This document shows, piece by piece, positions 26,452-58,042 of a stretch of 64,000 nt of DNA. Origin of the DNA: Candidatus Gottesmanbacteria bacterium (GTDB lineage Bacteria > Patescibacteriota > Microgenomatia > UBA10105 > UBA927); the NCBI GenBank assembly GCA_030679255.1, contig JAUXTO010000019.1:1699-65698 (forward strand), in the 5' to 3' direction. Position numbers and translations under genes: made by a program. Within the stretch, counting starts at the first letter, position 1, and each line of letters starts with the position of its first letter. The notes below the pieces were generated by a model that saw nothing but the letters and a program-made list of their open reading frames with translations, was not told the DNA's origin and ran no database searches.

Positions 26452-26561
26452 GTCATCCCCGCGCTCCTTGTTGTCATTCCCGCCCGCCGCGACGGGTAAA
26501 CTCCGGCGGGAATCCATTCCTCATTTTAACACTGGATCCTCGGGTCAAGCCCGAGGATGAC
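26452..26561. repeat. MITE-C, a bipartite hairpin element (GTCATYCC...GGRATGAC). It provides the C-terminus and stop codon of the 26474 gene.
   Basis: gtcattcccgcc..ggcgggaatcc .. ggatcctcgggtcaagcccgaggatgac. Confidence 0.7.
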
Positions 26562-35329: not shown

Positions 35330-35359
35330 AAAGAGTTTACTAAATACTATCCTGCCCGA

Positions 35360-35839: not shown

Positions 35840-35896
35840 TCGTCTTCATGTGTTCGTCTTCATTTCGACAAAATACGACCAATAATCCAAAAAGTT

Positions 35897-35925
35897 AGCT
35901 TCGCAAGGCCAGGCCTTGCGAAGCT
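35897..35925. repeat. REP-A palindrome (centre A), 26 nt upstream of the RAYT gene
   Basis: agcttcgcaaggccaggccttgcgaagct. Confidence 0.9.
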
Positions 35926-35950
35926 AGAAATTCTATGATAGGTTGATGGT

Positions 35951-36667
35951 ATGCCAGCAAAAAATCGAACCAAACAATATGAGGAAGACGCCCGGTACCA
36001 TCTCTACAACCGAGGCGTGGATAAGCAAAAAATTTTTCGGGATCGTCAGGATCATAGTGTATTTCTCTCCTACCTCAAAACGTATTTAGAACCCAAGGAT
36101 GAAATCACTCTTCGGGCGACCATTATGGATGAAACTGCTTCCTGGAGGGCAAAAGGCCAAGCGATAAAGTTGCTTAGGCTAAATAATTTCTATGACAATC
36201 TCACCCTGCTTTCCTATTGTCTTATGCCCAATCATTTTCATTTTCTCGTGCATCAAAGAGATGAGGATGGCATAGACCGATTCGTCAATTCCCTGGGTAC
36301 ACGCTACACGATGTATTTCAACAAAAAATACAAACGCGTTGGTCCATTGTTTCAAGGAGTCTATAAAGCAGTACTTGTAAAAACCGATGACCAGCTTCTC
36401 TACCTCTCGAGATACATTCACCGAAACCCACTCGGATTAGATAAATCGAAAATATTAGCTTCGCAAGGCCTGGCCTTGCGAAGCTGGGAGTATAGTTCGT
36501 ATAAGGAATATTTGGCATTACGACAGACCAAATGGGTGAATCGAAAGGAAATACTCACTCAATTCGGAAAAAAAGGAACGACATCATATCAGTCGTTCGT
36601 TGAGGGATTTGATGAAAATGAAAACGCAGCCTATATTCTCCATGATACAGCTATCGACGTTGATTGA
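35951..36667 (+). CDS. IS200-like Y1/HUH transposase of the REP-associated (RAYT, COG1943) type
   Basis: YHLYNRGVDKQKIF; LLSYCLMPNHFHFLV (HuH); GPLFQGVYKAVLV; YLSRYIHRNPL (catalytic Tyr region); WEYSSY. One REP-A copy is inserted in-frame (ILASQGLALRS). Confidence 0.8.
   Translation: MPAKNRTKQYEEDARYHLYNRGVDKQKIFRDRQDHSVFLSYLKTYLEPKDEITLRATIMDETASWRAKGQAIKLLRLNNFYDNLTLLSYCLMPNHFHFLVHQRDEDGIDRFVNSLGTRYTMYFNKKYKRVGPLFQGVYKAVLVKTDDQLLYLSRYIHRNPLGLDKSKILASQGLALRSWEYSSYKEYLALRQTKWVNRKEILTQFGKKGTTSYQSFVEGFDENENAAYILHDTAIDVD
36457..36485. repeat. REP-A palindrome inside the RAYT coding sequence
   Basis: Exact palindrome. Confidence 0.9.
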
Positions 36668-36685
36668 CGTAATATTAGAAAAAAG

Positions 36686-38920
36686 CTAAATAGCTAGCTT
36701 CGCAAGGCCTGGCCTTGCGAAGCTAAAGATAATGACAAGTATGGTCAATATGCTTATTGCGGCGCCCCAAAGGACGATCGTTGGGCGGTAGGAAAAGACG
36801 ATCGTGTGGGTGCCCTTCGGGAGATAGAGCGTCCGGAAGGCGGCGTTGCTTTCAAAAATCGGAGTGCTTTTGCCGTCAACCGTTGCCTTCCATCCCGGAT
36901 ACATAACTTCGCTTGTGGCAAGAAACGCGTTACAGGGAGTAGCCGCGGTCAGTGATATTTTTCCATATCCGTAGGAATTGACAGTGACCGTTCCTTTAGT
37001 GTCCGCCGGACAATCCGGATTGAATCCCGATACATCCACTCGAGTCCCGTCCACGATGATTGTCGTTTTCGGGTCCACGCTCCCACGTTTGATTGCTGAT
37101 AATACCGCTTCCCTATTAGGTTCTTTTTGCATCTTCGTTGCGATAAAAAAGCGAGGGCTTACATTTTTATTTTCATACAACCTCCATCCGCGATTCTTAT
37201 TTTCTCTCACTAACTCAAATTGTTTCGTTGAAATATGTTTGATGGCATCACTCGCTATCGGCACGAGAATGTATTTAATGTTGAGATAATTTAAGTACGG
37301 TGATGTGATAGCACGAAACGGCGGGGTGGACTCGCTGTAGGAAAGCACGTCGGTAAATTTGTACCCGTTGGCGGCAAGGAGAAATTCGTACATATTGCGA
37401 AGTGGTGGCGTATCGTAACCGGATACGGACTGAATTTTATGCGCAATCGGCGCGTTAAACTCGAGGACGTCCCGCAGGGGATCGCCGTGATAAAAATTCG
37501 GGAGAAAACGATAGAGACTTTTGTCATTGATAAACGCGGAAACTAATGCGGTATCCTCGCTTTTTTCCGGAATGGGAACCAATGAAAGGTGGCGGCGGGC
37601 AAACGGAACGAGATCAAGGAGGAGTAAACCTACAACAATCACCTGCAATATTTTTGATTTGACCATGCTCAATCCAATTCCAAATAATACACTTGCCGAC
37701 AGCACAAAAAGCACGATGTGCCGAGCCGGAATACGGATTTGGCTGTAGAGAGGCATCCACGAACGAACCCAAGAAAAAAGATCGAGGGGCGCGTTCTGCC
37801 CCAACCACATCCATATCCCAAAAATACCGACGAGGACAAACGCCGGAATTTCCCACGATGTTTTCTTTTTCACGACCCACGAGGCGACCGCTAGAAGTGC
37901 AAAGAGAAGCGATACTTTTCCAAAGTACCCCACGTGCTCAAATCCGAAGCCCGAGTCCGGCAGACGCGAGTAAAAATAAAATGGATCTATAAATTCAAGC
38001 AGGTGTCCGACTGTCGGCGTCCCAAGTTGGGCCCAACTATCCGGAAACGAAAACGTCCGGATGCTATGGGCTATGAATTGGGCGTTGGGGAGAAGTTGGA
38101 TTACTGCCAGACCAAATCCGATTAATATTGCAGCTCCGACACGAACCATTGGTTGGAAAATAATAGATAGGTTAAGAGTTGTCATCCCCGTGCCTGTAGG
38201 GGATCCAGTTTTTACTCTGGATTCCCGCGTACGCGGGAATGACTGAAAAATATTATAGCATTGATAAATCAACATCATGATAAACACTCCTTCCAGCGTA
38301 AACACTGCAACCATCGGATGACCAGCCAATAGCTGTATGGCCAACGCCACCCCGGCAAACGCGATGTTTTTTCTGCTGATAGCTGATAGCTGACCCGCTT
38401 CGCCAAAACAGCGAGGCGAGCAGCTGAAAGCTAAAATCACCCACGGCATCCACGCCGATGCAGCAATGATATCGATGTGTCCGGCTGGAATGCGGGCCAC
38501 AAAGTACGCGGACAATCCGAAGGCGACTCCCGCCCCCCACGCGGCAATTTTTGACATTTGACCTTTGATATTTGACATTGCGCGAAGCGCGCAGTACATC
38601 CCGGACATCGCGATAAACAGATGCAGGGCAATGTACCAGGAAATAGCAGCATTGGTGGGCAACAATACAAATAAAATATTCGGGAGATACCAAAAGGGAA
38701 TTTGCGGATGCTCAAGATATGGCTGACCGCCGAAAATGTACGGATTCCACCACGGAATAGTTCCCAGTTTAAGCGACTCCCCCAAAAACTGCCGCTGCCA
38801 ATAATGGTACCGCCAGATATCCGGTCCAAATAATATTTTTCCCTCCGGTGGCCATAGAACTCCCCAAAACACCACGAGAACAAGGATGGCATAGGCCAAA
38901 AATGGAAAAAACTTTTTCAT
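36686..38920 (-). CDS. YfhO-family membrane glycosyltransferase, paralog A
   Basis: WWNPYIFGGQPY...SAWMPWV...C-terminal YPGWKATVDGK..AFR..LPKGTHTIVFSYRP. Carries in-frame MITE-C, Elem-F, an SSR and a terminal REP. Confidence 0.7.
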   Translation of the reverse strand: MKKFFPFLAYAILVLVVFWGVLWPPEGKILFGPDIWRYHYWQRQFLGESLKLGTIPWWNPYIFGGQPYLEHPQIPFWYLPNILFVLLPTNAAISWYIALHLFIAMSGMYCALRAMSNIKGQMSKIAAWGAGVAFGLSAYFVARIPAGHIDIIAASAWMPWVILAFSCSPRCFGEAGQLSAISRKNIAFAGVALAIQLLAGHPMVAVFTLEGVFIMMLIYQCYNIFQSFPRTRESRVKTGSPTGTGMTTLNLSIIFQPMVRVGAAILIGFGLAVIQLLPNAQFIAHSIRTFSFPDSWAQLGTPTVGHLLEFIDPFYFYSRLPDSGFGFEHVGYFGKVSLLFALLAVASWVVKKKTSWEIPAFVLVGIFGIWMWLGQNAPLDLFSWVRSWMPLYSQIRIPARHIVLFVLSASVLFGIGLSMVKSKILQVIVVGLLLLDLVPFARRHLSLVPIPEKSEDTALVSAFINDKSLYRFLPNFYHGDPLRDVLEFNAPIAHKIQSVSGYDTPPLRNMYEFLLAANGYKFTDVLSYSESTPPFRAITSPYLNYLNIKYILVPIASDAIKHISTKQFELVRENKNRGWRLYENKNVSPRFFIATKMQKEPNREAVLSAIKRGSVDPKTTIIVDGTRVDVSGFNPDCPADTKGTVTVNSYGYGKISLTAATPCNAFLATSEVMYPGWKATVDGKSTPIFESNAAFRTLYLPKGTHTIVFSYRPTIVLWGAAISILTILVIIFSFARPGLAKLAI
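36696..36724. repeat. REP-A palindrome forming the 3' end (FARPGLAKLAI-stop) of YfhO paralog A
   Basis: Exact palindrome. Confidence 0.9.
38181..38243. repeat. MITE-C element in-frame within YfhO A (adds SFPRTRESRVKTGSPTGTGMTT)
   Basis: gtcatccccgtgcctgtaggggatcc agtttttactct ggattcccgcgtacgcgggaatgac. Confidence 0.75.
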
Positions 38921-40026
38921 GATTTTGTCTGGATAGTTCCGAGTACTGCAAGAAGAGCCTCATAGCTTGCCCCGCGTACATCGATCCATTTCGCGTTGAT
39001 CGACTGGGCAAGACCATTGTCATCATCGCTGTTGCCCAAGACGACCACCTTGTCAAATTCAGTCATTTTTTTACCAAGCGAAAAGAGCGCGTCGGTCACC
39101 ATGGCCGGAGAAGGTTTACGCTTCGTCGTCTTTTTGACAAAGGATGTTTTCCAGGCGATCTCAGGGTGGGATCCTACAAACTCGGCATCCACATCCGGAC
39201 AATACTGCCAAGAGTCGATTTTAATTCCCTGTTTTTTGAGTAAATCATTGACTGCCTCATTAACCTCATCCACTTTTTTCTCATCAAAGTATCCCCGCGC
39301 GACACCGGATTGATTGCTGACGACTATCTTCGTTGTTTTATATTTCGTCTGCATGTAGGAGAGGAAGCTCACAACCGGCATGTTAAGGGTAATTTTTTTC
39401 TTCCAATCTTCTGTTCGGCCTAAAAAATCGTCGTTTGTGATGAGCGTTCCGTCGCGGTCAAGAACAACCAATAATCGTTTTGAGGGGATCTTCTGTTGGA
39501 TATAATCGATGACTTCCGTCGTCGAAAGCTTCGGGTCATCGGTATAGGCCATTGTGCCGCCAACGGCTTTTATTGCTTCACGCTCACTGGTAATCCCCGG
39601 CGTTTGTTTGCCGATAAAATCCGGACCTTTCATATACATCGAGGGCTTGAGCGCGTTGATCACGTCTACGCCGAGTTTAACGTCCGTAACAACAACGTAA
39701 TCTACCATCCGCAGATTGGCAATCATGTACGCGCGTAATGTATCAGGAAATATCGGCCGCCCCGCGCCTTTCCGGCCCTCTACAAACCGGTCGCTCGTCA
39801 CAGAAACGACAAGTACGTCGCAGAGTTTTTTAGCCGACTCAAAGTGTTTGACGTGGCCGGGATGCAGAAGATCAAATCCCCCGTGGCAAAGCCCGACCGT
39901 TTTCCCCTCCTGACGAAGCCGACGGATGACCGATGCTGCGGCGGCAAGCGAAATAATTTTCCCGGACGTATATATTTTTGTCGATGAGATCTGCATCATA
40001 AATTTATCATGGTACGCCCTGATCAT
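38917..40026 (-). CDS. Bifunctional nucleotidyltransferase (HldE/RfaE domain II-like) fused to a HAD phosphatase (GmhB-like)
   Basis: GLCHGGFDLLHPGHVKHF (HxGH cytidylyl/adenylyltransferase) plus VVLDRDGTLI (HAD motif I). Start trimmed to an ATG overlapping the stop of YfhO B. Confidence 0.6.
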   Translation of the reverse strand: MIRAYHDKFMMQISSTKIYTSGKIISLAAAASVIRRLRQEGKTVGLCHGGFDLLHPGHVKHFESAKKLCDVLVVSVTSDRFVEGRKGAGRPIFPDTLRAYMIANLRMVDYVVVTDVKLGVDVINALKPSMYMKGPDFIGKQTPGITSEREAIKAVGGTMAYTDDPKLSTTEVIDYIQQKIPSKRLLVVLDRDGTLITNDDFLGRTEDWKKKITLNMPVVSFLSYMQTKYKTTKIVVSNQSGVARGYFDEKKVDEVNEAVNDLLKKQGIKIDSWQYCPDVDAEFVGSHPEIAWKTSFVKKTTKRKPSPAMVTDALFSLGKKMTEFDKVVVLGNSDDDNGLAQSINAKWIDVRGASYEALLAVLGTIQTKS

Positions 40027-42296
40027 ACCCGCTTTTTCATCCAAATCAAACAGCCAAGAAGGGTCATGAGACTCACAAAGATTCCCATGATAAATACCGT
40101 TGGCCGGTAAACCATGACCATGGTGTGTTTCCCTTTGGGAATGACGACCGTCCGGAACGCAAGGTTGCCTTCAATGAGTTTCGCCGGTTTCCCGTCAATG
40201 GTAGCCTGCCAGCCCGGATACATCACCTCACTGGTTGCGAGCATGGCGTTACACGGCGTATCGGTCTTCAAAATTATTTTGTTCATGGAATAGGACGCGA
40301 CCGTAACCGGCGGGAGCGGTTGACTACCGCAATTGAACGCAACATCAGAGGGAACATCCTTTTGTTGCACTAAAACGACTTTTCCCGGATCATGCTCCCC
40401 TGCCCGGATGGCACGGGCAATGGACGGGCGATCAGGGAGTCCAACAATCTGTGAAGCAAGAAAAAATCTGGGTAACACGGTGGTGTTTTCATACAGACGG
40501 AAATAATCTTTTTTGTTTTCCTCCATAACTAATTTATACTTCGGCGAAGATCCGGCAACCGAGTCAAACCAGGACGGGACAAAAATATATTTGACGTTGA
40601 GAAAATCCACATACCGCGAAGACGGTTTTAAATACGGAATCTGTACATCAGTTTGCTGGACGTCCGGGTTTTCGACCCCTGCAACGGCGGCCCCAAATTC
40701 ATAGTAGTTGCGCAGGATAGCCGGGTCATACCCCGATGCACTGTAGAGCCGATAACCCATCGCAGCGTCAAAATCCAGGGCATCGCGCGTCCCCATGCCG
40801 ACGTTAAAGTTGGGAAGAATCCGCGCCATCCCCAAATTCTTTTGAAGGTAGCTCACTAATTCTTGATTATGCCGCGTCGCCGGATCGGGCCGCAGGACAA
40901 CAAAGTTTTTTGCAAACCAGAGCATATCAACAGTGATAAACAATGAAATTATGAAAACAGCTAGCTTCGCAAGGCCAGGCCTTGCGAAGCTAAGATTCTT
41001 CAAATAATTCAAGCCGATGCCGGCGAGGGCGCTCATGCCGAAGACAAAGAGAATAAGATGGCGGGAAGGGATTCGGAGATATTTATATATTGGAACGGTG
41101 TCCCAGAGAATTTTATTGAGGTCGATGGGCGCGTTCCAGCCGAGGGAAACCCACAGGCCGAAGATTGCAATACACACCATTGCACCGCCAAATACTAATA
41201 CTTGGCGGTCGTGAGTGAACAATTTCGTGACGGGGTTACTTCGTTTAATAATCATTTGAAGGACATGAATGACGAATGCAATGATAGAAATCAATGCAAG
41301 CAATAGTCCCCCCTTGCCCATATATGCCGCCATTTCGCCGAAATTGGGACTTGGACCTTTATAACTCCATGGGAATCCGAGGACAAACGGATCAATAAGT
41401 TGCTTGAGATTGCCGATCGTATACGATCCAAACACTGCCCATGAGTAGGGCAATGGATAGGTCCGGATGCTTGCGCGAAAAAATTCCTGACCGGGAAGAA
41501 TCTGGATAGCTGATAAGCCAAGCCCGATAATTACCGAGAGTCCTGCATATAAAAAAGGTTTCACACTTCTTGCATTGATGCATTGACCCACGGACACCAT
41601 GCCGACGGCAATGACGGTCATCATCGCCATCGTCTGATACCCCGCCAAAATCTGCATGGCAAATACTATCCCGGCAATAACGCAATTTGTTTTCCATTTG
41701 ACATTTGACTTTTGACATTTGACATTTGCCCATACCACCCACGGCATCCAGGAGGCCGAAAGGATAAGCTCTATATGCCCTTCCCAAATCCGCCCCATAA
41801 AAAAGCCGGAAAGGCCAAAGACTAATCCTGCGATCCAGGGACCAATAGGATGGAGGACATAAGACATAGGACGTAGGATAGAACTGTTTTTGATTCCATT
41901 GGAAATTGGTAATTGGTCATTGGTCATTACACTTCTGATCAGGATGTACATCCCCAGCATCGCCCAAAAGATGTGCAGCGGAATGATCCATGAGTAGACG
42001 AAGCGGTATGGCATCAGGGCAAAGAGCCAATTGACGGGATACCAAAATGCGAGCGACGGGTTAGCGATCAACGGCTCGCCGGAAAACAGGTACGGATTCC
42101 ACCACGGAAACTCCCCACGGGCAAGAGCGTCACCAAATAATTGCCGGAAAAAATGATACGACCGATGGATGTCATCGCCAAATACGAGCGTCCCCGGCGC
42201 AGGCCACAGGATAGGCCAAAAAACAAAGAGCACGATGGCGAGATAAAAAATGGCAGCGACAATGTACGGATTTTTCAGTACTCTCACGATTCTCAT
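40023..42296 (-). CDS. YfhO-family membrane glycosyltransferase, paralog B
   Basis: WWNPYLFSGEP; SASWMPWVV; C-terminal YPGWQATIDGK. Contains in-frame REP-A and SSR tracts. Confidence 0.7.
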   Translation of the reverse strand: MRIVRVLKNPYIVAAIFYLAIVLFVFWPILWPAPGTLVFGDDIHRSYHFFRQLFGDALARGEFPWWNPYLFSGEPLIANPSLAFWYPVNWLFALMPYRFVYSWIIPLHIFWAMLGMYILIRSVMTNDQLPISNGIKNSSILRPMSYVLHPIGPWIAGLVFGLSGFFMGRIWEGHIELILSASWMPWVVWANVKCQKSNVKWKTNCVIAGIVFAMQILAGYQTMAMMTVIAVGMVSVGQCINARSVKPFLYAGLSVIIGLGLSAIQILPGQEFFRASIRTYPLPYSWAVFGSYTIGNLKQLIDPFVLGFPWSYKGPSPNFGEMAAYMGKGGLLLALISIIAFVIHVLQMIIKRSNPVTKLFTHDRQVLVFGGAMVCIAIFGLWVSLGWNAPIDLNKILWDTVPIYKYLRIPSRHLILFVFGMSALAGIGLNYLKNLSFARPGLAKLAVFIISLFITVDMLWFAKNFVVLRPDPATRHNQELVSYLQKNLGMARILPNFNVGMGTRDALDFDAAMGYRLYSASGYDPAILRNYYEFGAAVAGVENPDVQQTDVQIPYLKPSSRYVDFLNVKYIFVPSWFDSVAGSSPKYKLVMEENKKDYFRLYENTTVLPRFFLASQIVGLPDRPSIARAIRAGEHDPGKVVLVQQKDVPSDVAFNCGSQPLPPVTVASYSMNKIILKTDTPCNAMLATSEVMYPGWQATIDGKPAKLIEGNLAFRTVVIPKGKHTMVMVYRPTVFIMGIFVSLMTLLGCLIWMKKRV
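40963..40991. repeat. REP-A palindrome in-frame in YfhO B (SFARPGLAKL)
   Basis: agcttcgcaaggccaggccttgcgaagct. Confidence 0.9.
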
Positions 42297-42381
42297 TGTA
42301 TCGCCCAGTTCTCCTTTTGCAACAGAGAATGAACAACGCGCGAGATCTTGCTATTGTCAATAGAAACAAAACGCTCTATTC

Positions 42382-43179
42382 TTGTGTCCAATGTTTACCG
42401 TAACTCCACGGACCATCACCGTGCGCAACGCATCGCTTACCTATGCCGCTATCCCCTGGGATTGCCAGTATCTGGACAATACCACCATACAGATCAAGAA
42501 GTTTACGTTCACGACCAAACAGGAAGCCAAACATCTTCTGTTTACGATTACGAAACAACTAAAACTTGCTAAAGGCGATCTGCTGTTTCTCAAAACTTCC
42601 CCGCTTGATATCAAACATTTACATATCCTTACTTCCTTGGGCTTTTACGTTATTGAGGAAGCCGTTGAGATTTCCTTTGACCTTTCCGACTGGAATCCAA
42701 ACGCATTTTCTCAACATGCCATGCGGGGGTATCGACTCGTTAGCGCGACAAAGTCGCATCTCCCGTCCATCAAAAAAATTGCAGGATCAGCCTTCACGCA
42801 TGACCGGTATCATCTGGATCCAAATATTCCGGCGCGTGGGGCGAATAAGCGGTTCATCGGATGGGTAGAAACGAGCATGAAGAGCACTGACGAAGTGTTT
42901 GCGTTTGTTGATGCCAACAGTGTTGTTATCGGATTTTTTATCATCGCGAAAAACCCGGATGGTACAAACCTTCGCCTTGCGGCAATTGATCCATCGCTCG
43001 TGGGAAAAGGATTAGGGAAACTTCTGTACTATTCGATGTTTTCTATTCTAAAAAAACGCGGCGACACATCCATACAAACACAGATATCGCTCAATAACAC
43101 AGCGGTACTTAACGTCTACACCTATCTCGTCCACCCGAAGGTTACCCGCGTGGAAATGGTGTTACACTTTATCGTATGA
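42382..43179 (+). CDS. WecD-like two-domain N-acetyltransferase (GNAT)
   Basis: RFIGWVE.. C-terminal GNAT-like segment. Adjacent to a GT2 gene and close to the aminotransferase. Confidence 0.5.
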   Translation: MCPMFTVTPRTITVRNASLTYAAIPWDCQYLDNTTIQIKKFTFTTKQEAKHLLFTITKQLKLAKGDLLFLKTSPLDIKHLHILTSLGFYVIEEAVEISFDLSDWNPNAFSQHAMRGYRLVSATKSHLPSIKKIAGSAFTHDRYHLDPNIPARGANKRFIGWVETSMKSTDEVFAFVDANSVVIGFFIIAKNPDGTNLRLAAIDPSLVGKGLGKLLYYSMFSILKKRGDTSIQTQISLNNTAVLNVYTYLVHPKVTRVEMVLHFIV

Positions 43180-43916
43180 AACGAATTTCATTCGTCATCC
43201 CTCTCTATAATGCCGCCGCGTCCGTGCGGGAACTGACCACGAGGATCCTATCCCCTTCGATCCCGGGAAATAAAGAAATTATTTATACGAACGACGGCTC
43301 GACGGATGACACTGACCGCATCGTCCGAGCTTTAGCTACCAAAAACAAATCCATCATATATATCCAACTGGCTGGAAACTTTGGCCAGCATAATGCAATT
43401 CTCACCGGACTCAAATTTGCACGGGGAAACATTGTGGTTTGTTTAGACGATGATCTGCAAACGCCGCCGGAGGAAGCAGTCATTTTGCTTGATGCATTGA
43501 CCGATCGGGATGTCGACGTCGTGTATGGACAGTATGAAACCAATGAAGATCCGGTCCGCAGGATCGGTACGAGACTTCATAACCTGATGGCGCAGGTATT
43601 CGGGAAGCCCAAAGACGTGACGCTGACGAGCTTCTTTTGTATGACGAAATCTGTAGCCCACACAGTAAGCCAATACAAAGGAACGCTTGTATACCTCCCT
43701 GGGCTCGTCTTCCGTGCGACAAAAAAAATAACCTCCGTCCCCGTTCGTCACGTTCCCCGCAAATACGGCCGCTCCGGGTATACCTTTTTGGGTTTATTGA
43801 AATTGTGGCTGATCGGAGTCTTGGTGTACCTGCGTTTAGCAGATATATTTACGTACGGGAAAGCGACGACGGTTGCGGACTCGGTCAACGCACGCGTCAC
43901 ATCCAACCACCGTTAA
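43176..43916 (+). CDS. GT2 polyprenyl-phosphate glycosyltransferase, GtrB/ArnC-like
   Basis: ISFVIPLYNAAASV...IYTNDGSTDDT...GNFGQHNAILTG. Confidence 0.65.
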   Translation: MKRISFVIPLYNAAASVRELTTRILSPSIPGNKEIIYTNDGSTDDTDRIVRALATKNKSIIYIQLAGNFGQHNAILTGLKFARGNIVVCLDDDLQTPPEEAVILLDALTDRDVDVVYGQYETNEDPVRRIGTRLHNLMAQVFGKPKDVTLTSFFCMTKSVAHTVSQYKGTLVYLPGLVFRATKKITSVPVRHVPRKYGRSGYTFLGLLKLWLIGVLVYLRLADIFTYGKATTVADSVNARVTSNHR

Positions 43917-44637
43917 TGGGGATGGCCGCGCCCGTGATATAGCCGGCTTGGGGGCTTGCCAGATAGACGGCGAGACTGGCAATTTCTTCCGGCTGGGCTT
44001 TGCGTCCCAGCGGAATTTGTTTGATCATTGTTTCCATATAAGAAGTTGGAACGTCTTTAAGAATTTCTGTATCGACAAGTCCCGGGCAAATGGCATTGAC
44101 GGTAATGCCAAAGCGCGCCACTTCTTTGGCTAACGACTTTGTAAATCCAATAAGGGCCGCTTTGGACGCACTATAGTTCGTTTGCCCGAAATCTCCCCGC
44201 TGCCCGCTTATAGAAGAAAGGAAAATAATCCTCCCCCACCCGGAGGCAATCATGCCGGGAAGTAATTGTTTGGTGACAAAGAATGCACCATACACATTGG
44301 TTTTCATGACGATATCCCAATCCTCTCCACTCATCTTGGTAAATAAAACATTACGGACGATCCCCGCGTTGTTGACGAGAATATCGATATGACCGAATTG
44401 GGAAATAACTTTTGCGCATCCGCGGGCCACTGCGTTGGGATCGGTGATGTCAAAATACACCGCGTTGCTTTTGGGTGATAAACGTTTTATCTGCCTAAGG
44501 ACATCCTTGCTCTCCGGCGACGGATGTGATGCATGGGTGACAACGATATTCCCCTCCCGAGCAAATCCCAACGCTATCGCCCGCCCAATGCCACGGGACG
44601 AGCCGGTGACGAACACAATTTTTTCTTTTGTTTTCAT
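43897..44637 (-). CDS. SDR-family oxidoreductase (FabG-like)
   Basis: IVFVTGSSRGIGRAIA...NNAG...YSASKAA. Confidence 0.7.
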   Translation of the reverse strand: MKTKEKIVFVTGSSRGIGRAIALGFAREGNIVVTHASHPSPESKDVLRQIKRLSPKSNAVYFDITDPNAVARGCAKVISQFGHIDILVNNAGIVRNVLFTKMSGEDWDIVMKTNVYGAFFVTKQLLPGMIASGWGRIIFLSSISGQRGDFGQTNYSASKAALIGFTKSLAKEVARFGITVNAICPGLVDTEILKDVPTSYMETMIKQIPLGRKAQPEEIASLAVYLASPQAGYITGAAIPINGGWM

Positions 44638-46775
44638 AGAGAGGTGCGGATATCATAAGACTTCTTCCATAAAAATACCATGATACCCGCGGTAATGAAC
44701 GAGATGACTCCCCCGATGACGAAAATCCTGGGATTGTACCGATAGATGACGGTGTGGTTTCCTGCGGGGACAAAAAGTGCTCGGAATGCATTGTTTGCCT
44801 TGATTATCTCTACCTTTTGTTCATCGATAAATCCTTCCCATCCGGGGTAATATACTTCGGAACTCATGAGTGTTGCCCCAGTGGTGGACTGGGTTGACAG
44901 GATGATTTCGTTGGGTGAATATTTTACGATATTCACCTTCCCCTCTTTATGATCGGCAAAATAGAACCTTGGGAAGACCGTGGTATTTTCATACAATCTA
45001 TAATCACGAGCCACATCTTCGCGGATGAGACGGAATCTCGGGTCTTTCGTACCAAAAAGTGGATCGTACGCGCGCGGGTGGAGAATATATTTGATGTTGA
45101 GGAAATCCGTGGCTTTGGAAAATATATTCAAGTACGGAATCTGCACATCATGATCGAGAATACTCGGCGTCGTCTTGCCATTGGACGCATCAATAAATGC
45201 ATAATACGGTTTTAGTATCATCGTGTCGTAGCCGGTCGCATTAAAAACACCGTACTGCATCCCCGCGTCGAAATCAAAACTATCCCGGGGTGGTGCCCAC
45301 GCGCCGAAGTTAGTAAGAACTCTATACGGATCGCGGTTTTGTTTAAGAATCTTAATAAGGTCAACGTCGTGGCGCGTCTCGGGAACGGGCTTGAGGGTGA
45401 TGAAGTGATGGGAGTAAAAAATCATTTCCGCCGCGATGAGTACTCCCGCGATTCTCACAATGTGCTGAGAGCGGATTGCGTGAATGGACATCCCAATAAG
45501 TCCGCTGAGCCCAAAGGCAACGAGGATGAGATGGCGCGGAGGAATACGAAGGAATTTATACGTGGGGACAAGCTTCCAGAGGATATATTGCAAGTCAATG
45601 GGGGCGTTGGGACCCATGGATACCCAGAGACCAAAGAAGGCGATACAACCGAACGCGAGTATCATAGGTGACTTAGGTATCTTAAGTACCCTCGGTAACC
45701 GAAACAATAAAACTGCCAGAACAACGAGCAACCCCACTCGTCCCACAAAAAACGCATGTTCGGCAAAATTGGGTGGCGGGCCGCTATAGGTGAGTTGATC
45801 CCCAAAGAAAAATGGGTTAAAAAATTGCCCTAAACTCCTCCACTCAAACGATCCGTATGCAATCCAGGAATACGGAAGAGCGTATGTCCTTATGGTTTGA
45901 CGAAAAAACTCCTGTTGAGGGAGAAGGACCACCGCAAAAAGTCCGATAGCCAGAAGCACGCTCAAGGCGATACTCGCAATGACGATCACTATCCTCTTCA
46001 TACTTGCCCGTTGAGAAATAAACGTGATCGCTGCCATGATCCCCACTGCCTCGAGCGTCAACATAGCCATCGTCTGATACCCGGCAAACAACTGCATGGC
46101 CAAGACTACCGCAGCGATAACAATCCTCCGCCGCTCCTGGTATTTTTGTGTGTATTCTTCCAGTTTTGAATTTTTAGTTTTGAGTTTTGAGATTGCGCCA
46201 AAGGCGCATACCACCCACGGCATCCACGAGGCCGCAGCAATCACATCCACATGCCCGGCCCAGATGCGGGCGGCAAAGAAGCCGGAGAGACCGAAAACGA
46301 GACCGGCGATCCACGGACCAATAGGATGGAGGACATAGGACATAGGACATAAGATAGAGAAATTGCTCTTTTCATTGGATAATTTGATTATTGGATTATT
46401 GGATAATTCCCTGCGAAGCAGGGTATACATCCCCGTCATCGCCCACAGGAGGTGTAGGGCGATATGCCACGAATACGCAATATTGAGGGGCAAAAGTACG
46501 AAAAGCCAATTCGGTGGATACAACATGTTGACGATCGGATGGGCTATAAACGGAGTCCCTGCGAAGTTGTAGGGATTCCACCACGGCCAGACGCCTTGAG
46601 CCAAAAAGTTGTTGAAAAATTGCCGGTAAAAATAATACGCCCGGTGGATATCGTCGCCCCAGATCATCTCCGTGGCTCCAGGAATGAGCGCGCGGCCAAA
46701 CACCACCGCGACCGCCAGCGCGTAGAACGCGATCGGCACACCATACGGCCACACCCTACGGAAAAACGATCTCAT
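44634..46775 (-). CDS. YfhO-family membrane glycosyltransferase, paralog C. Start trimmed to an ATG overlapping the methyltransferase stop.
   Basis: WWNPYNFAGTPF; AASWMPWVV; C-terminal YPGWEGFIDEQ..AFRALFVPAGNHTVIYRY. Confidence 0.65.
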   Translation of the reverse strand: MRSFFRRVWPYGVPIAFYALAVAVVFGRALIPGATEMIWGDDIHRAYYFYRQFFNNFLAQGVWPWWNPYNFAGTPFIAHPIVNMLYPPNWLFVLLPLNIAYSWHIALHLLWAMTGMYTLLRRELSNNPIIKLSNEKSNFSILCPMSYVLHPIGPWIAGLVFGLSGFFAARIWAGHVDVIAAASWMPWVVCAFGAISKLKTKNSKLEEYTQKYQERRRIVIAAVVLAMQLFAGYQTMAMLTLEAVGIMAAITFISQRASMKRIVIVIASIALSVLLAIGLFAVVLLPQQEFFRQTIRTYALPYSWIAYGSFEWRSLGQFFNPFFFGDQLTYSGPPPNFAEHAFFVGRVGLLVVLAVLLFRLPRVLKIPKSPMILAFGCIAFFGLWVSMGPNAPIDLQYILWKLVPTYKFLRIPPRHLILVAFGLSGLIGMSIHAIRSQHIVRIAGVLIAAEMIFYSHHFITLKPVPETRHDVDLIKILKQNRDPYRVLTNFGAWAPPRDSFDFDAGMQYGVFNATGYDTMILKPYYAFIDASNGKTTPSILDHDVQIPYLNIFSKATDFLNIKYILHPRAYDPLFGTKDPRFRLIREDVARDYRLYENTTVFPRFYFADHKEGKVNIVKYSPNEIILSTQSTTGATLMSSEVYYPGWEGFIDEQKVEIIKANNAFRALFVPAGNHTVIYRYNPRIFVIGGVISFITAGIMVFLWKKSYDIRTSL

Positions 46776-47527
46776 ACGCCTACCTTCGTCGCGTACACCA
46801 CGAGGGTTGCGCCTCTCGGGAACGGACACCAAAGAAAAAACAACTGTTCCAACCGTAACAAATAATACAACATAGCATTGACCAAAGGATGTGGGACACG
46901 CAAATACATGGGGACGACCGGGACAGACGTCTGGCGCTTGGTGTACATCCTGAAAAGGATATACCACGGCAGGGAAAACACGTTCCAATAATTCATATAG
47001 TGCACATGAAATCCGGCAGTACGGAGTTTTTCCCTGAGCTCACCCGGCTCATATCTCCTCTTATGCCCGCCAATGTCATCCAGACTACTCCAAAGCCACT
47101 TCCCTGCTGGTACGGTCAAGAGAAACGTACCGTCTTTTTCCAACATGTCCCAACACCGTCGTAAAAATAAACGGTCGCGCGTTTGATGTTCAAGGACATC
47201 AAATGCCCCGACCCCGCTAAATTTTTGTTTGCTCTGAAATGTATAGAGGGACTGACGGACAAACCGGGCAGCAGGACAACTGTTTTTTGCATAGGTGAGC
47301 GCTGCCTCATTGACATCCAAGCCCACGACACGATATCCCAGATTGTCTAACACGCGCAGCATGATGCCGGTCCCACATCCTACTTCAAGGAATGACCGGC
47401 GATCATTTTTTGGAATGAACCGTTCAATAAGTCCAGCAAGCATGGAGCCACGCGCACGGAACCAGAAATGCTCGTTCTCGACTTGGGCTACCTCCCTATA
47501 GTGCGATATATGATACGTTGCGGACAT
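46772..47527 (-). CDS. Class I SAM-dependent methyltransferase
   Basis: FLEVGCGTGIMLRVL...VVGLDVNE. Confidence 0.65.
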   Translation of the reverse strand: MSATYHISHYREVAQVENEHFWFRARGSMLAGLIERFIPKNDRRSFLEVGCGTGIMLRVLDNLGYRVVGLDVNEAALTYAKNSCPAARFVRQSLYTFQSKQKFSGVGAFDVLEHQTRDRLFLRRCWDMLEKDGTFLLTVPAGKWLWSSLDDIGGHKRRYEPGELREKLRTAGFHVHYMNYWNVFSLPWYILFRMYTKRQTSVPVVPMYLRVPHPLVNAMLYYLLRLEQLFFLWCPFPRGATLVVYATKVGV

Positions 47528-47541
47528 AATCCAAGAGCTGG

Positions 47542-49548
47542 TTATAGCGATCGGTATACCGTCACAAAGGAATTCTTATACACCTCTGTGAGGAACGGAT
47601 AGATTTTGACAAGACCCCCTACTCCCCTTGCCTCGCCGCCCCGCTTCGCCGAATCGAGGCGAGCAGGCGGGCCATCCTCTTTCTCCTGCGGACCGAAAAA
47701 TATCCAATGAAGATTTTCGCGGGTCATCCATGCTTTGGCGTCATCCGGTTTCATCCGGCCGGAAAAAAACTCTTTGACTTTTACTTCTTTTGCTTCAGCG
47801 TCGACCGTGTTGGCGTGCCCCACATAGACCGTATTGCCGGCATAGACCGGGATATAGTTGCCCGCGGTCGTCTCAGAAAGAATAATTGTTTTGCGGCTGG
47901 GCGTCGCGTCCTGGATATAACGGATAGCGGCAATGAAATCTTTCAGCGGATACATGACGTAGCTCCCCGTCGGCACGAGCGGGTAAGTCGCCCGCATCTT
48001 GTGATCGATGAAGTCCTTTTGCCAGAGGAATGAGGAAGACATCACCCCGAAACCCACACCTATCAATATCGTAATCAATATACACACCATTAAGCGCAGC
48101 ATACTCCTGAGGAAAATTCCAAATGATCCAAACATTTGGTATTTGGTGCTTGATGCTTGGTGCTTGTTTGGTATTTGGTGCTTGATGCTTGGTGCTTGTT
48201 GATAATTCCAATGAAATGCAAACCAACAGAGATACGCCGTCAGGACCCCCAGCGGGACGTGCGGGATCATTTCGCTAAAGCGAAGGGGCGACTGGGCCGG
48301 GATAAATTTGAAAATAAAAAGGAGAAGCGCCCACGCGAGGACCCAAGCCGCGGCAGGCCACATCCTGCGGTCTCTCATTTTTAGCGCGACCAGAAGTCCG
48401 ATGATCCCCAAGGGAAGAATGGGCCCGACTGCCTTCAAGTATTCGATGTAATCAAACGGCAGGGGCTTCACGATGTCAAACTCGACGAGCCGCTTCCATG
48501 GATAAAACGAGGTCATGAGGGAGAGATAGATGAGAGAAGGAAGACCCAAAATCAAGACTACCACCCTTCCTGTCATCCTCGGGCTTGACCCGAGGATCCA
48601 GTTTCTTAAAAGCGAGATTCCAGCTCGGAGGCCGGAACGACAAAAATATGCCCAGCTTCGCAAGGCCTGGCCTTGCGAAGCTAACAATTTTAGATTATAT
48701 GATAGTTCAAGGCATGTTAGGGCGCCAATGGTGACAATAATAAACAATAAGCCCGGAGGGAATATGATGCCTTCGGCGAATGCGATCACTCCGAGAAATA
48801 CCCAATTGCCCGGCTTTTTCATGGTCGCCTCATCGGAGAGGGCCATAATCAAAAATATAATCAGTGCTTGCCCCACGAGAAGATGCGGGATGAAGGTGAT
48901 GCGCTGCAGACTGTCCATGACGGACCACCACGGCATGTAGCCGCCGAAACGCCAGTTGGTGATATTGGCAATCGTTGCGGGGACGACTTGATTGTTAATG
49001 ACAGCAACAATCTTGGGCCAGGTGGAGGCGGTGACAGCAAGGAGAAAGGCAAGAATCGGGACGTAGGACGTAGGATCTAGGACGTAGGGAAAAAATGCAA
49101 GACGTTCCGATTTATTCTTATGTCCTATGTCATCACTCATACGTCCTTGTTCAAACGTTTTCTTACAAAACTGGACGATCATGACGAGGAGAAATCCTCC
49201 GAAGACGATGCGCGCGACGTGGTAGACGTCCGAAGCCCGATGCCAGGGCACACGAACCCACGCCCCAAGCCACCCCAGGAAAAGATAAAAAATGTGGATG
49301 AATGATCCCTGATGCGGCTCGCTCGTGTATTGCTCGCGGACCACGACATTTCCCTCTATCCCCTGCCGGATACGGGAGAGATAAAAATTAAAGTCCGTCG
49401 GAAAATTATGGATGAGTTCGAATTCACGGTTAGATTGCAGACGGTTGCTATGGGCAATCTCATACGCCGCCGGGGCGAGGGAGCCAAGAAGAAACAAAAT
49501 AATAAGGAAACCAAATACTTTATCTCTCATGTCCCCCATTCTACGCAA
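47542..49548 (-). CDS. Polytopic membrane protein, family X paralog 3. Contains REP-A, MITE-C, Elem-F and tandem-repeat insertions in-frame.
   Basis: HNFPTDFNFYLSRIRQGIEGN..TSEP motif. Inserted peptides LLASQGQALRSW, RSGLRAGISLLRNWILGSSPRMTG. Confidence 0.45.
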   Translation of the reverse strand: MRRMGDMRDKVFGFLIILFLLGSLAPAAYEIAHSNRLQSNREFELIHNFPTDFNFYLSRIRQGIEGNVVVREQYTSEPHQGSFIHIFYLFLGWLGAWVRVPWHRASDVYHVARIVFGGFLLVMIVQFCKKTFEQGRMSDDIGHKNKSERLAFFPYVLDPTSYVPILAFLLAVTASTWPKIVAVINNQVVPATIANITNWRFGGYMPWWSVMDSLQRITFIPHLLVGQALIIFLIMALSDEATMKKPGNWVFLGVIAFAEGIIFPPGLLFIIVTIGALTCLELSYNLKLLASQGQALRSWAYFCRSGLRAGISLLRNWILGSSPRMTGRVVVLILGLPSLIYLSLMTSFYPWKRLVEFDIVKPLPFDYIEYLKAVGPILPLGIIGLLVALKMRDRRMWPAAAWVLAWALLLFIFKFIPAQSPLRFSEMIPHVPLGVLTAYLCWFAFHWNYQQAPSIKHQIPNKHQASSTKYQMFGSFGIFLRSMLRLMVCILITILIGVGFGVMSSSFLWQKDFIDHKMRATYPLVPTGSYVMYPLKDFIAAIRYIQDATPSRKTIILSETTAGNYIPVYAGNTVYVGHANTVDAEAKEVKVKEFFSGRMKPDDAKAWMTRENLHWIFFGPQEKEDGPPARLDSAKRGGEARGVGGLVKIYPFLTEVYKNSFVTVYRSL
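48572..48638. repeat. MITE-C element (second hairpin degenerate) in-frame
   Basis: gtcatcctcgggcttgacccgaggatcc agtttcttaaaagcgag attccagctcggagg. Confidence 0.65.
48654..48682. repeat. REP-A palindrome in-frame
   Basis: Exact palindrome. Confidence 0.9.
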
Positions 49549-49562
49549 AAAACTTTACATTG

Positions 49563-51215
49563 TCATTGGAGAGAATACGCTTGAAAATCCTTATTACTCA
49601 ATCGCTTCACAACACCACTACGTTGTGGTGGAATCCAAGCGGACGGGGCGAGGATCCAACGGACGTTATGGGCAGAAAGAATGCGGTTGGCGACGACTGG
49701 ATCGCGGGTGGTAAAAAATTCATTGATGGCGGCGCGTTTGGCGCCTACGTCCTTGGTAAACATGACGTGGCCGGCGACCACTCTTCTACCAGTAAATGAA
49801 GGGGTCATCGTGCTGATCTCGTAGGGGGCCATCACGACATCTTCGGGCTGACTGTTTTGTGATAGATAAGAAAATGCATCCATGAGCTCCTTTGGTATAT
49901 AGACTTGAATATTATTCCGGTTCTCCGCCACATACCCCGCGTGTTCGCGGAAACTGGCAATCAAACCGACGGAAAAATAAAGAAGTAACACCGATATCAA
50001 CACAAATTTCATAAGGCCACCCCTTGTCCTTCGACTTCGCTCAGGATAAACAGCCAAGGGAGTGGCCTTAAACGCAGTTACATCACCCAGCCTTAAAAGG
50101 TGAGACCTTTTAAGGCTAAATATCCAGACGGCGGTACCGATACCGAGGGGGATGAATTGATAGCCGCCGAGGAACCGCTCGGGGGTGACCGGCACGAAAG
50201 GACCTATTATATAAAGCATAATCCAGCTACTCGCGGCCCAGGCAAGGAGGAGACTTCCCACCCGCCCCAAACGCCAGATGGTGGGAATTGCAAGCAAAAA
50301 CAATACGAGCGTTGGTCCGAAACTTACCGCGTACTCAACCGGATTTACTTTATAGTCAAGCGTCTGCTCCCACAAAAGATAGCTCGTCCACGGAAATATG
50401 TTCATCTGGAGGTAACGATGATAAAGCATAACAAATCCGGCGGTCACAACCAAAATTATGACCATTATAATTTCAAAGCCTGGCTTTGATTTGTTTCGGA
50501 GCGTCAGGACGGTATATATAAGAAGGGTGGGTATGAAGGTGACGTAGACCACGGGGTTGGTAAATCCCATCGCCGCGACAAGGCCGACGATCGTAAGGAG
50601 GGAAACGAATTTTCTAAATTGACCCGGCGATTCTCCATTTATTATTAGAAGAAATACGGCAAGCATCCCCACTTTACTCCATAAATGATGCGGCACAAAT
50701 GACCACCGGAAGATGGGATCAAGCTCCGTCCATGCGTGGGGGAGACTTGCAACAATTGGGCCGTTACTCCCCCATCCCCAGAAATACGTACCAAAGAGGA
50801 CAAAGCAGAATGCGACAATCCTTTTTATAATAGATTGTGGAAATGTTTTCCGGATCAATTGATAGACCAATACCATGAGCGCCAATCCTCCGAAAATCCG
50901 CGCTCCCGTATACGCTATAGGTAAAGAGATATCAAGAAGACGCGCTATATGCCCGAGGGTGAGAAGAAATATGCTCACGACCATCCGGGGATAGATTTCC
51001 GGTGTCATCCTGCTGGTGGCGACCCACCACCCATCCCATCCCTGCCGCATGATATCCAAATATATGTAATAATCTTCAACAAAATTATGAACCAACGGAT
51101 AGACAGTCCCCGGAGGGGTATTCCATAGATAGAGAATCGTTTGGGAAACGCTCAAAAGAGCCGCCAATAAAATAAGAAGAATAATGATGACTCGATCCCA
51201 TGAAACTCTTGGCAT
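49563..51215 (-). CDS. Polytopic membrane protein, family X paralog 4. Contains an Elem-D plus Elem-E pair in-frame.
   Basis: LVHNFVEDYYIYLDIMRQGWDGW..TPE motif. Confidence 0.45.
   Translation of the reverse strand: MPRVSWDRVIIILLILLAALLSVSQTILYLWNTPPGTVYPLVHNFVEDYYIYLDIMRQGWDGWWVATSRMTPEIYPRMVVSIFLLTLGHIARLLDISLPIAYTGARIFGGLALMVLVYQLIRKTFPQSIIKRIVAFCFVLFGTYFWGWGSNGPIVASLPHAWTELDPIFRWSFVPHHLWSKVGMLAVFLLIINGESPGQFRKFVSLLTIVGLVAAMGFTNPVVYVTFIPTLLIYTVLTLRNKSKPGFEIIMVIILVVTAGFVMLYHRYLQMNIFPWTSYLLWEQTLDYKVNPVEYAVSFGPTLVLFLLAIPTIWRLGRVGSLLLAWAASSWIMLYIIGPFVPVTPERFLGGYQFIPLGIGTAVWIFSLKRSHLLRLGDVTAFKATPLAVYPERSRRTRGGLMKFVLISVLLLYFSVGLIASFREHAGYVAENRNNIQVYIPKELMDAFSYLSQNSQPEDVVMAPYEISTMTPSFTGRRVVAGHVMFTKDVGAKRAAINEFFTTRDPVVANRILSAHNVRWILAPSAWIPPQRSGVVKRLSNKDFQAYSLQ
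50005..50117. repeat. Elem-D (AAGGCCACCCCTTG..CAAGGGAGTGGCCTT hairpin) plus Elem-E (29-nt palindrome AGCCTTAAAAGGT-GAG-ACCTTTTAAGGCT)
   Basis: The second copy pair lies at 51763..51790 and 51890..51957, in the divergently transcribed neighbouring gene. Confidence 0.75.
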
Positions 51216-57921: not shown

Positions 57922-58042
57922 AAGTCCGTAAAGTCAAAAAGTCCTTAAAGTCCGTAAAGTCAAAAAGTCCGTAAAGTCCGTAAAGTCCGTAAAGTATTTG
58001 ACTTTATAGACATTCGACTTTATAGACTTTCGACTCTAAGTT

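Follow-up and report, generated by a model that had tools for sequence, protein, structure and literature searches.

What fills the segments at which three glycosyltransferase genes of the same genome lose all resemblance to one another, and why should it be there? The genes, designated paralogs A, B and C, encode YfhO-family GT-C glycosyltransferases and lie on a 64-kb contig stretch (hereafter the window) from a Candidatus Gottesmanbacteria metagenome-assembled genome (MAG) of the Patescibacteria, or Candidate Phyla Radiation (CPR). A preliminary description of this DNA had proposed that loops of the three proteins were diversified by the insertion or expansion of repeats. We consider it probable that short repeats of the genome's own, selfish or neutral, have lodged in frame in permissive, predicted cytoplasmic loops of GT-C enzymes, and that the fragility of the resulting genes is a by-product.

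Repeat-built loops in paralogs A, B and C and their homologues

The three genes and their variable segments were as follows (aa, amino acids; nt, nucleotides; ORF, open reading frame; TM, transmembrane helix).

36686..38920, minus strand: paralog A, YfhO-family GT-C glycosyltransferase, 744 aa, assigned from its ORF, Pfam PF09586 (YfhO) and alignment to B and C
38540..38593, minus strand: A loop 1 (TM2-TM3), peptide CALRAMSNIKGQMSKIAA
38357..38434, minus strand: A loop 2 (TM4-TM5), peptide LAFSCSPRCFGEAGQLSAISRKNIAF
38153..38239, minus strand: A TM6-TM7 insert, peptide FPRTRESRVKTGSPTGTGMTTLNLSIIFQ, two tandem hairpin units of the CTGGATYCC-stem-loop-GGRATGACA family
36689..36724, minus strand: C-terminal tail of A, peptide SFARPGLAKLAI, encoded by the 31-nt perfect palindrome TAGCTTCGCAAGGCCTGGCCTTGCGAAGCTA
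40023..42296, minus strand: paralog B, YfhO-family, 757 aa from the ORF start used here (754 aa in the NCBI call)
41838..41945, minus strand: B loop 1 (TM2-TM3), (ACCAATN)x4.4 at 41898-41928 and (CCTATGT)x3.6 at 41854-41878
41682..41726, minus strand: B loop 2 (TM4-TM5), peptide NVKCQKSNVKWKTNC
40959..40994, minus strand: B TM10-TM11 loop insert, peptide LSFARPGLAKLA, the 31-nt palindrome in frame
44634..46775, minus strand: paralog C, YfhO-family, 713 aa (the mechanical ORF reaches 46988)
46314..46424, minus strand: C loop 1, hairpin CCCTGC-TTC-GCAGGG (46409-46423), 8-nt array (46374-46408) and (CCTATGT)x3.1 (46330-46351)
46125..46208, minus strand: C loop 2, peptide CAFGAISKLKTKNSKLEEYTQKYQERRR

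A, B and C matched Pfam PF09586 at 36.4-37.8 bits (cut-off 28.5), the aligned part being the C-terminal portion of the model only; the same family is annotated on YfhO homologues. The paralogs share 38-41% identity with A. Paralog B was 100% identical to the NCBI protein P0001 (Candidatus Gottesmanbacteria MAG) and paralog C to the database protein P0031 (713 aa, first residues MRSFFRR). The likely start of C is the ATG at 46775; the mechanical ORF adds 71 codons upstream (46776-46988), which overlap a methyltransferase gene (46772..47527).

An alignment of A, B and C showed that similarity was fully lost after SASWMPWV and regained at A(G/A)VxLAxQLLAG, which is the divergence that the preliminary description had reported; this segment is referred to as loop 2. 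A second site of total divergence, loop 1, was found between WAMxGMY and AWxxGLVFGLSG. The preliminary description had placed this N-terminal spot in B and C only, and while the repeats that it named there are real, with (AGGACAT)n at 41854-41878 and 46330-46351 and (ATTGGTA)n at 41898-41928, its list was incomplete and A has the spot as well.

The DNA of loop 2 matched the description of simple repeats and mini-palindromes in all three paralogs. In A, the GC-rich palindromic element (family D15, 38394-38421) is there as described, and is adjoined by an array that had been overlooked, (CAGCTAT)x2.7 at 38375-38393. The B loop 2 array, (AATGTCA)x4.9 at 41695-41728, translates as NVKCQKSNVKW, and C loop 2 consists of the 15-nt hairpin TGCGCC-TTT-GGCGCA (46194-46208) and then (CTCAAAA)x4.3 (46162-46191). 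Loop 1 of A is made of the 15-nt hairpin TGCGCG-CTT-CGCGCA (38579-38593) and (ATGTCAA)x4.3 (38550-38579), and the octamer unit of the C loop 1 array at 46374-46408 can be written (ATTGGATA)n or (ATCCAATA)n. Arrays of 7- or 8-nt, non-triplet units were present in all three paralogs; those in the window have 2.7-5 units with a 76-100% match and are mostly imperfect. Because 3 x 7 nt equals 7 codons, a heptamer array reads through all three frames. The TM6-TM7 insert of A, whose hairpin units are backed by a predicted fold, was missing from B and C in the alignment.

The paralogs were then aligned with 120 homologues (123 proteins in total), all of them from Patescibacteria where the source was named. 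Loop 1 varied in length from 5 aa (KLTKS) to 47 aa and loop 2 from 10 aa (WAFSRRGVIL) to 74 aa. Minimal loops free of repeats were seen in many homologues, and in others the same two positions were occupied by arrays or elements of a different kind. In many homologues loop peptides were exact readings of 7-nt repeats of other unit sequence, for example AVSCQLS from (CAGCTGT)3, NFKFQIS from (AATTTCA)3 and NLKSQIS from (AATCTCA)3; SSKFKIQ, IREIRGIG, GPIGLIRPIRPI and others were likewise of repeat type, and two palindrome-derived peptides recurred (...FSHHQGP...LETSRLPARE and LSSRPLS..SGEAGRDP..DSSFRWND). The proposal that the loops are diversified by repeat insertion or expansion was supported by these comparisons, in which loop peptides proved to be exact translations of 7-nt arrays and palindromes. 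When the proteins were scanned for runs of 9 residues compatible with a 7-nt repeat, 28 of the 123 gave matches, all confined to B coordinates 110-149, 180-199 and the 240s (of about 700 residues), with 3 matches in 85,479 windows of the shuffled control. Loop types were scattered over an average-linkage similarity ordering of the proteins, with short and long forms adjacent, and we therefore conclude that there were many gains, losses or replacements, independent gains being counted only qualitatively. The repeats are present, are translated in called ORFs, are missing from many homologues and cluster at two sites family-wide.

Comparison of the DNA of 29 related loci revealed how the same sites are occupied elsewhere. 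The loop 1 module of hairpin and (ATGTCAA)n was found in five loci (window A, L001, L002, L008 and L009). L001 also encoded the hairpin of C loop 2 followed by a different heptamer, (GCGACAA)n, and the loop 2 array of L003 was a 14-nt higher-order version. In loop 1 of L008 and in loop 2 of L023 an AATGTCA array was interrupted by a 36-nt palindrome, in both cases at the same phase, and a 21-nt palindrome split the array in L009; no target duplication was seen in these three nested cases. Orthologous loop 2 arrays keep 35 nt while all of their units change in concert, such that NVKCQMS becomes AVSCQLS when each unit changes and the periodicity of the DNA is retained. Around the loop 2 array, B and L002 used the same synonymous codons at 17 of 20 positions compared with a fraction of 0.46 gene-wide (p=4e-4). 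A similar figure was obtained for B residues 421-450, which surround the 31-nt palindrome insert: compared with L003, which is without an exact match to the palindrome, the same-codon fraction was 0.94 over 16 identical residues (0.45 gene-wide), and this may reflect a conserved DNA element or recent exchange. Strict heptamer arrays were not found in the 21 non-Patescibacteria loci L031-L051 (Proteobacteria, Chloroflexi, Planctomycetota and one Levybacteria locus, L037). A query of (NVKCQMS)x6 matched tiny repeat-only ORFs only and no host proteins.

Loops between transmembrane helices commonly diverge fast, and the segments could in principle be unconstrained loops that have diverged in the ordinary way, their repeat look being a coincidence. 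The preliminary description had named the sign by which this would be recognised, external segments of the same length without repeat character. What the external loci encoded was instead a perfect (AATGTCA)x5 in loop 2 of L002 and a perfect (GCTGTCA)x5 in loop 2 of L007 (a Woesebacteria MAG, 44% identical), both in independent MAGs, at the same site and with the same 35-nt length. Strict period-7 arrays in the window numbered 8 compared to 0 in shuffles, every other period giving 0-3; the heptamer-encodable peptides were confined to loops; and identical modules stand in unrelated genes, as described below. The perfect external arrays, the period-7 excess and the heptamer-peptide scan refute ordinary divergence, to which we assign next to no probability.

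Repeats and palindromes across the window

Among tandem repeats of the window, period 7 predominates. Tandem Repeats Finder identified 22 arrays of period 7 or 8, of which 19 are within ORFs (coding density 92%). The hosts are mostly large membrane proteins, with one glycosyltransferase family 2 (GT2) enzyme among them, and at least 30 in-frame repeat insertions were counted in the 64 kb, most densely in loops of polytopic glycosyltransferases that are predicted to be cytoplasmic. The features outside the YfhO genes that bear on this are listed here.

13118..13218, minus strand: heptamer arrays in an unrelated GT2 gene, (ATGTCAA)x4.7 with the flank CGCTTCCCGCA, and (TGGTCAT)n
47542..49548, minus strand: ORF of a polytopic membrane protein with heptamer arrays (49059-49088 and 48135-48198), the 31-nt palindrome (48654-48684) and a hairpin element (48571-48602)
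35951..36667, plus strand: IS200-like Y1 transposase (RAYT-like, after the transposases associated with repetitive extragenic palindromic, REP, elements), Pfam Y1_Tnp, E=5.6e-9

The GT2 module (13176-13218, family D3) had the same flank and (ATGTCAA)n as A loop 1, with 93% identity over 40 nt. In ORF 47542..49548, comparison with 21 homologues showed that three repeat-derived segments are lineage-specific insertions, and other genomes had different elements at the same three loops, including a family found in YfhO loop 2 elsewhere. Repeat insertion is not special to the YfhO trio; it affects many genes of the window and, across the clade, this neighbouring membrane-protein family. The inserts were missing from orthologues (the 120 YfhO homologues and the 21 homologues of ORF 47542), hence they are insertions and not ancestral sequence.

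Seven sites in the window match the 27-nt core of the 31-nt palindrome (0 expected), and 5 of the 7 copies are in frame inside ORFs, one being the Y1 transposase gene itself. This gene is flanked on both sides by the perfect palindrome TAGCTTCGCAAGGCCWGGCCTTGCGAAGCTA (35896-35926 and 36695-36725), and near its 3'-end it is interrupted in frame by a further copy (36456-36485) encoding the peptide LASQGLALRSW. The layout of gene and palindromes was repeated in L005 and L052, with 83% protein identity. The Y1 protein scored 36.6 bits with Pfam Y1_Tnp (cut-off 23) and 36.2 bits with NCBIfam REP_Tyr_transpos (cut-off 80), and its translation shows HUH-like (HFHFLV) and YIHRNP motifs. A copy of the 31-nt palindrome is also found in the YfhO gene of L005, where it may sit at the site of the B insert.

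Other palindromic families were also in several copies. Family D15 had 4 copies in the window (38394-38421, 6813, 9324 and 14079), family D13 had 2, and the CTGGATYCC-stem-loop-GGRATGACA hairpin family had 5 (10074, 26531-26562, 38153-38239, 48571-48602 and 59882). Peptides of the latter include LSSSGLTRGSS and NWILGSSPRMT, and related LDSRFRGND-like peptides fill loop 1 in many YfhO homologues. A 66-nt palindromic element was found at 50004-50069 and 51889-51954; the two copies are 91% identical, lie in neighbouring ORFs on opposite strands and are translated as KATPLAVYPERSRRTRGGLMKF (ORF 49563..51215) and QNFIRPPLALRLRSGLAAKGVAF (ORF 51263..53122). Two hairpin families besides that of the 31-nt palindrome, and the 66-nt element, were likewise translated in several unrelated ORFs. 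In-frame palindrome copies were found in YfhO A and B, the Y1 gene and ORFs 19760, 47542, 49563, 51263, 26474 and 58043. Two independent, unitig-level Logan contigs of the same sample, L054 and L059 (SRR13727518), were 100% identical to window positions 40964-48164 and terminate exactly within the 31-nt palindrome and a duplicated heptamer unit; assembly of this genome from short reads is therefore broken up by the repeats.

The duplicated unit is a 32-nt higher-order heptamer unit (TTTGGTATTTGGTGCTTGATGCTTGGTGCTTG), exactly duplicated in ORF 47542..49548 (48135-48198). A related inverted copy was found at 56339-56401 in ORF 56005..57921, which encodes an NPCBM-domain membrane protein, and in both ORFs the sense strand reads as QAPSIKHQ-type peptides. 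Two 9-nt arrays were also observed: (AAAGTCCGT)x8.6 at 57921-57995, in the intergenic gap ahead of a fourth YfhO-like ORF (58043..60592), and (ATGGGACTT)x4.8 at 59396-59438 inside that ORF, translated as MGLMGLMGLMGLMG.

The neighbours of the YfhO trio (36.7-47 kb) are genes for a GT2, a cytidylyltransferase, a short-chain dehydrogenase/reductase (SDR), a methyltransferase and a PMT_2 protein, as well as the fourth YfhO-like ORF. The GT2, cytidylyltransferase, SDR and PMT_2 genes are compatible with envelope glycosylation. The trio would be expected to act as glycosyltransferases with lipid-linked sugar donors. The cytidylyltransferase gene lies between A and B (38917-40026); its start is most likely the ATG at 40026, overlapping the stop codon of B (ATGA), and the upstream TTG at 40044 is an unlikely start, the shorter product alone being present in the protein collection.

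The pairing of hairpins with heptamers raises the question of a function at the level of nucleic acid, in which the modules would be cis-acting DNA or RNA signals, bound by a RAYT-like transposase or an OB-fold (oligonucleotide/oligosaccharide-binding) protein or causing a translational pause after a pair of TM helices. The stems vary and yet stay paired (TGCGCG/CGCGCA, CCCTGC/GCAGGG, TGCGCC/GGCGCA and GCGGC/GCCGC), and strong 6-bp hairpins abutted 4 of the 22 arrays, above the 0.55 expected by chance (p=0.0016). With relaxed hairpin criteria, however, no enrichment beside arrays was detected (6 of 22 compared to 4.8 expected, p=0.35). The conserved synonymous sites around the B loop 2 array and the position of the Y1 gene, with its flanking palindromes, next to paralog A are also consistent with such a function. 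Against it, a search of window positions 35000-50000 gave no Rfam match, many arrays are without a hairpin and many homologues are without the modules altogether. We regard a signal of this kind as very unlikely.

Predicted topology and variation in natural populations

The AlphaFold2 model of B (mean predicted local distance difference test, pLDDT, 82.4; predicted template modelling score 0.86) has 11 TM helices, a beta-rich domain (residues 464-732) and a final helix. Foldseek matched it to the GT-C proteins AftD, AglB, PglB, ArnT and DPY19 (E 8e-8 to 9e-5). The model also has the features of GT-C architecture, with a predicted multi-helix N-terminal membrane domain, the acidic FGDDIHR motif, with an invariant D42, in the predicted first outer loop and a large, predicted extracytoplasmic domain. 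Topology was derived from this model, the GT-C fold match and the positive-inside rule, with the N-terminus of B set inside as in the matched GT-C enzymes. The inside-assigned loops contained 14 K/R and 1 D/E in 59 aa and the outside-assigned loops 11 K/R and 10 D/E in 151 aa. Six insertion sites fell on inside-assigned loops: loop 1 (TM2-3), loop 2 (TM4-5), the A TM6-7 insert, a segment at B TM8-9, the TM10-11 palindrome and the A tail. Every insertion site is therefore predicted to be on the cytoplasmic face, whereas the conserved motifs FGDDIHR, AGHxD and IRTYxLPYSW are predicted on the outer face. The preliminary description had left it open whether extracytoplasmic or cytoplasmic loops were diversified; the prediction favours the latter, and surface or antigenic variation was unsupported, since exposure of predicted cytoplasmic loops to phages or hosts is unlikely.

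The inserts differ in predicted structure. B loop 1 (residues 127-148) had a pLDDT below 50 and is predicted to be disordered, whereas loop 2 was modelled with confidence (pLDDT 82-95) as a helical-hairpin extension, a helix-turn-helix formed by H184-196 and H201-217. It could be argued from the latter that K/N/Q/S-rich inserts have been put to use in the cytoplasm, either to lengthen helices or to provide a docking site, for instance to the partner GT2, the enzyme that would load the lipid carrier, and are kept by selection. The peptide NxKCQMSNxKWKKxC, which recurs in homologues only 43-50% identical, and the positive charge, which suits a cytoplasmic loop, point the same way. Such modules are hard to reconcile with the many homologues that have 5-aa and 10-aa loops, with residues replaced wholesale while the periodicity is kept (NVKCQMS to AVSCQLS), with the predicted disorder of loop 1 and with wholly unrelated elements at the same site in sister sequences, and we think selection for peptide function very unlikely.

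Within species the arrays were mostly stable. Among about 45 full-length close variants, falling into seven 90%-identity clusters, no length differences were found. The term 'hypervariable', used in the preliminary description, is therefore apt between species but not within them, where copy number is stable among close variants save for one frameshifting unit loss. No array variant was found in the window's own population in one sample (SRR13727518), and two scans of public metagenomes for copy-number variants of the B loop 2 array found none.

The unit loss came from the Hainich H41 well, from which four assemblies (L055, L056, L057 and L058, at least 99.9% identical) differed at five positions in the region homologous to window positions 36-50 kb. 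Two of the differences were ordinary single-nucleotide polymorphisms. The others were a GAG-to-TAG change in the loop 2 insert of one YfhO gene; the deletion of a single 8-nt unit in the loop 1 (ATCCAATA) array of a second YfhO gene, which was frameshifted; and a TGC codon turned into TGA where a helix meets a loop in the homologue of ORF 47542. The array that lost a unit is the same array as that of C loop 1. The stop codons arise by G-to-T and C-to-A changes. L057 and L055, which are 99.9% identical, differed by the 8-nt unit loss and the stop codon in the loop 2 insert. The arrays are fragile sites, and on this one occasion a one-unit slip was seen to frameshift the gene.

These four assemblies were the only ones clean enough for a comparison of split genes. 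Three other apparent cases were rejected as slippage: the split YfhO P0184/L060 coincided with a scaffold N-gap, and P0013/L053 and P0186/L061 came from low-coverage assemblies with many 1-nt indels. The 'frameshift' of L053 was also rejected as a unit change, being a single-base loss in a hairpin arm.

The main rival to passive lodging is that the arrays are contingency loci, non-triplet slippage switches that turn YfhO paralogs on and off and generate glycan heterogeneity, for instance against phages or hosts. With units of 7 and 8 nt, any change by a single unit puts the gene out of frame, and in H41 one natural deletion of such a unit truncates the second YfhO gene in a 99.9% identical population. 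Three of the five H41 differences break genes, all of the GT-C type, and the two differences between L057 and L055 are both located in about 5% of the DNA that was compared (p about 0.003). Arrays are also enriched in YfhO genes, with 30 in 95 kb compared to 21 in 319 kb of flanks (4.8x, p=4e-8; the counts are not phylogenetically independent), and the paralogs stand side by side, like known sets of phase-variable glycosyltransferases. The arrays, however, are short and mostly imperfect and thus lack the long, near-perfect tract of a switch; they lie 110-200 codons into the gene and not close to the start; and their length is kept at 35 nt across species. Neither the close variants nor the single sample of the window's own population showed a change in length; of the three changes that break genes, two are nonsense point mutations and not slippage; and the remaining candidate split genes were traced to gaps in scaffolds or assemblies of low quality. 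A contingency function seems unlikely to us, if less so than the signal or peptide functions considered above.

Passive lodging of the genome's own repeats, which we prefer, would proceed as follows. The repeats are of two kinds, 7-nt (some 8-nt) tandem arrays of 2.7-5 copies and GC-rich hairpins or palindromes of 15-66 nt in multi-copy families. Replication slippage and concerted evolution may renew the arrays so long as the frame stays open, and the palindromic elements may arrive by transposition or ectopic copying, also into existing arrays. The encoded peptides, whether disordered or K/N/Q/S-rich helix extensions, would be largely neutral passengers, tolerated because the short loops that hold them are remote from the active site, itself predicted on the outer face. 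The sole visible filters would be that the frame stays open and that the peptide, in many cases positively charged, can be tolerated.

Several of the observations above weigh against this account. That three of five H41 differences break GT-C-type genes at or beside loops fits selection for on/off states better than neutrality. The 4.8-fold array excess in YfhO genes over mostly coding flanks is such that a passive model needs both tolerance and shared ancestry; a per-locus association of YfhO arrays with flank arrays was not significant (Fisher p=1.0). The synonymous conservation between B and L002 hints at constraint on the DNA or recent exchange, the link of arrays to hairpins is significant for strong hairpins only and not for weaker ones, and the recurrence of NxKCQMSNxKWKKxC suggests that some inserts may have acquired a function.

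A more elaborate reading, which as a whole we also hold to be unlikely, is that these repeats are ultra-small mobile elements of Gottesmanbacteria and their relatives. The elements would comprise the 15-nt hairpin and heptamer modules, 21- and 36-nt palindromes that home into arrays without target duplication, and the 31-nt palindrome tied to the RAYT-like Y1 transposase. They would prefer cytoplasmic loops of envelope glycosyltransferases, with the arrays doubling as switches that inactivate paralogs in natural populations.

If passive lodging of repeats is general, much of the lineage-specific variation in length and sequence among the membrane proteins of CPR bacteria would come from the translation of junk DNA and not from adaptation, with consequences for the annotation, alignment and structure prediction of these proteins. 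The inserts would then also mark out where GT-C enzymes naturally tolerate insertions, and would offer a system for studying the origin and homogenisation of 7-nt arrays. The single frameshifting slip makes it testable that repeats modulate the surface glycans of episymbiotic bacteria.

Comparison with known repeat systems

Simple-sequence contingency loci control phase-variable glycosyltransferases in Haemophilus, Neisseria and Campylobacter. The window resembles them in having non-triplet repeats in glycosyltransferase genes and in one natural, frameshifting one-unit change in a related population. It differs in that its arrays are short, imperfect and mid-gene, with a length conserved between species and among close variants, and reversible switching was not evident in the assemblies compared (L055-L058 and the approximately 45 close variants).

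Very small dispersed repeats nested within other repeats were reportedly described in cyanobacteria by Elhai and colleagues in 2008. The 21-36 nt elements within heptamer arrays, again without target duplication, resemble these, but belong to another phylum, form composites that are translated and are known here from three nested cases only.

The arrays resemble the heptamer repeats of cyanobacteria, including the short tandemly repeated repetitive (STRR) sequences of Calothrix and Nostoc, and those of Beggiatoaceae and Xanthomonas: there are several 7-nt families, arrays of 2-6 copies are dispersed and period 7 is favoured. One STRR unit, TTGGTCA, is a rotation of the ATTGGTC units at 41898-41928. 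In these groups heptanucleotide repeats are reported to be mostly intergenic (PMC4692102, PMC4679880), being under-represented in coding regions (PMC4692102), whereas 19 of the 22 window arrays are inside ORFs and translated.

The 31-nt palindrome recalls REP/REPIN elements and their RAYT transposases (PMC3116915). It is a GC-rich perfect palindrome with 7 copies in 64 kb, found on both sides of a single-copy IS200-like Y1 gene in an arrangement kept in a related genome. REPs are extragenic by definition, however, and 5 of the 7 window copies are in frame in genes; the score of the Y1 protein, 36 bits, is also below the RAYT cut-off of 80.

A search of the literature found no report of in-frame translated repeat insertions in Patescibacteria. 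The nearest precedent for their mode of existence is the Rickettsia palindromic elements (RPEs), in-frame selfish palindromes (Ogata et al. 2000 and 2002, via PMC10969869). As far as they are described in that source, RPEs share with the window elements the presence of multi-copy palindromic DNA in frame in many unrelated genes, genes that stay open and positions that the fold tolerates. In the same account RPEs are about 150 bp long, form about ten families and reside in an alphaproteobacterium, whereas the window elements are of 15-66 nt, accompanied by 7-nt arrays, in a CPR host. The window sites are, in addition, loops or tails that polytopic membrane proteins are predicted to expose to the cytoplasm. 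The kinship would be one of shared mode of existence only and not of family membership, size setting the two apart. In-frame coding repeats, a pattern previously known mainly from Rickettsia, are here found in a CPR bacterium.

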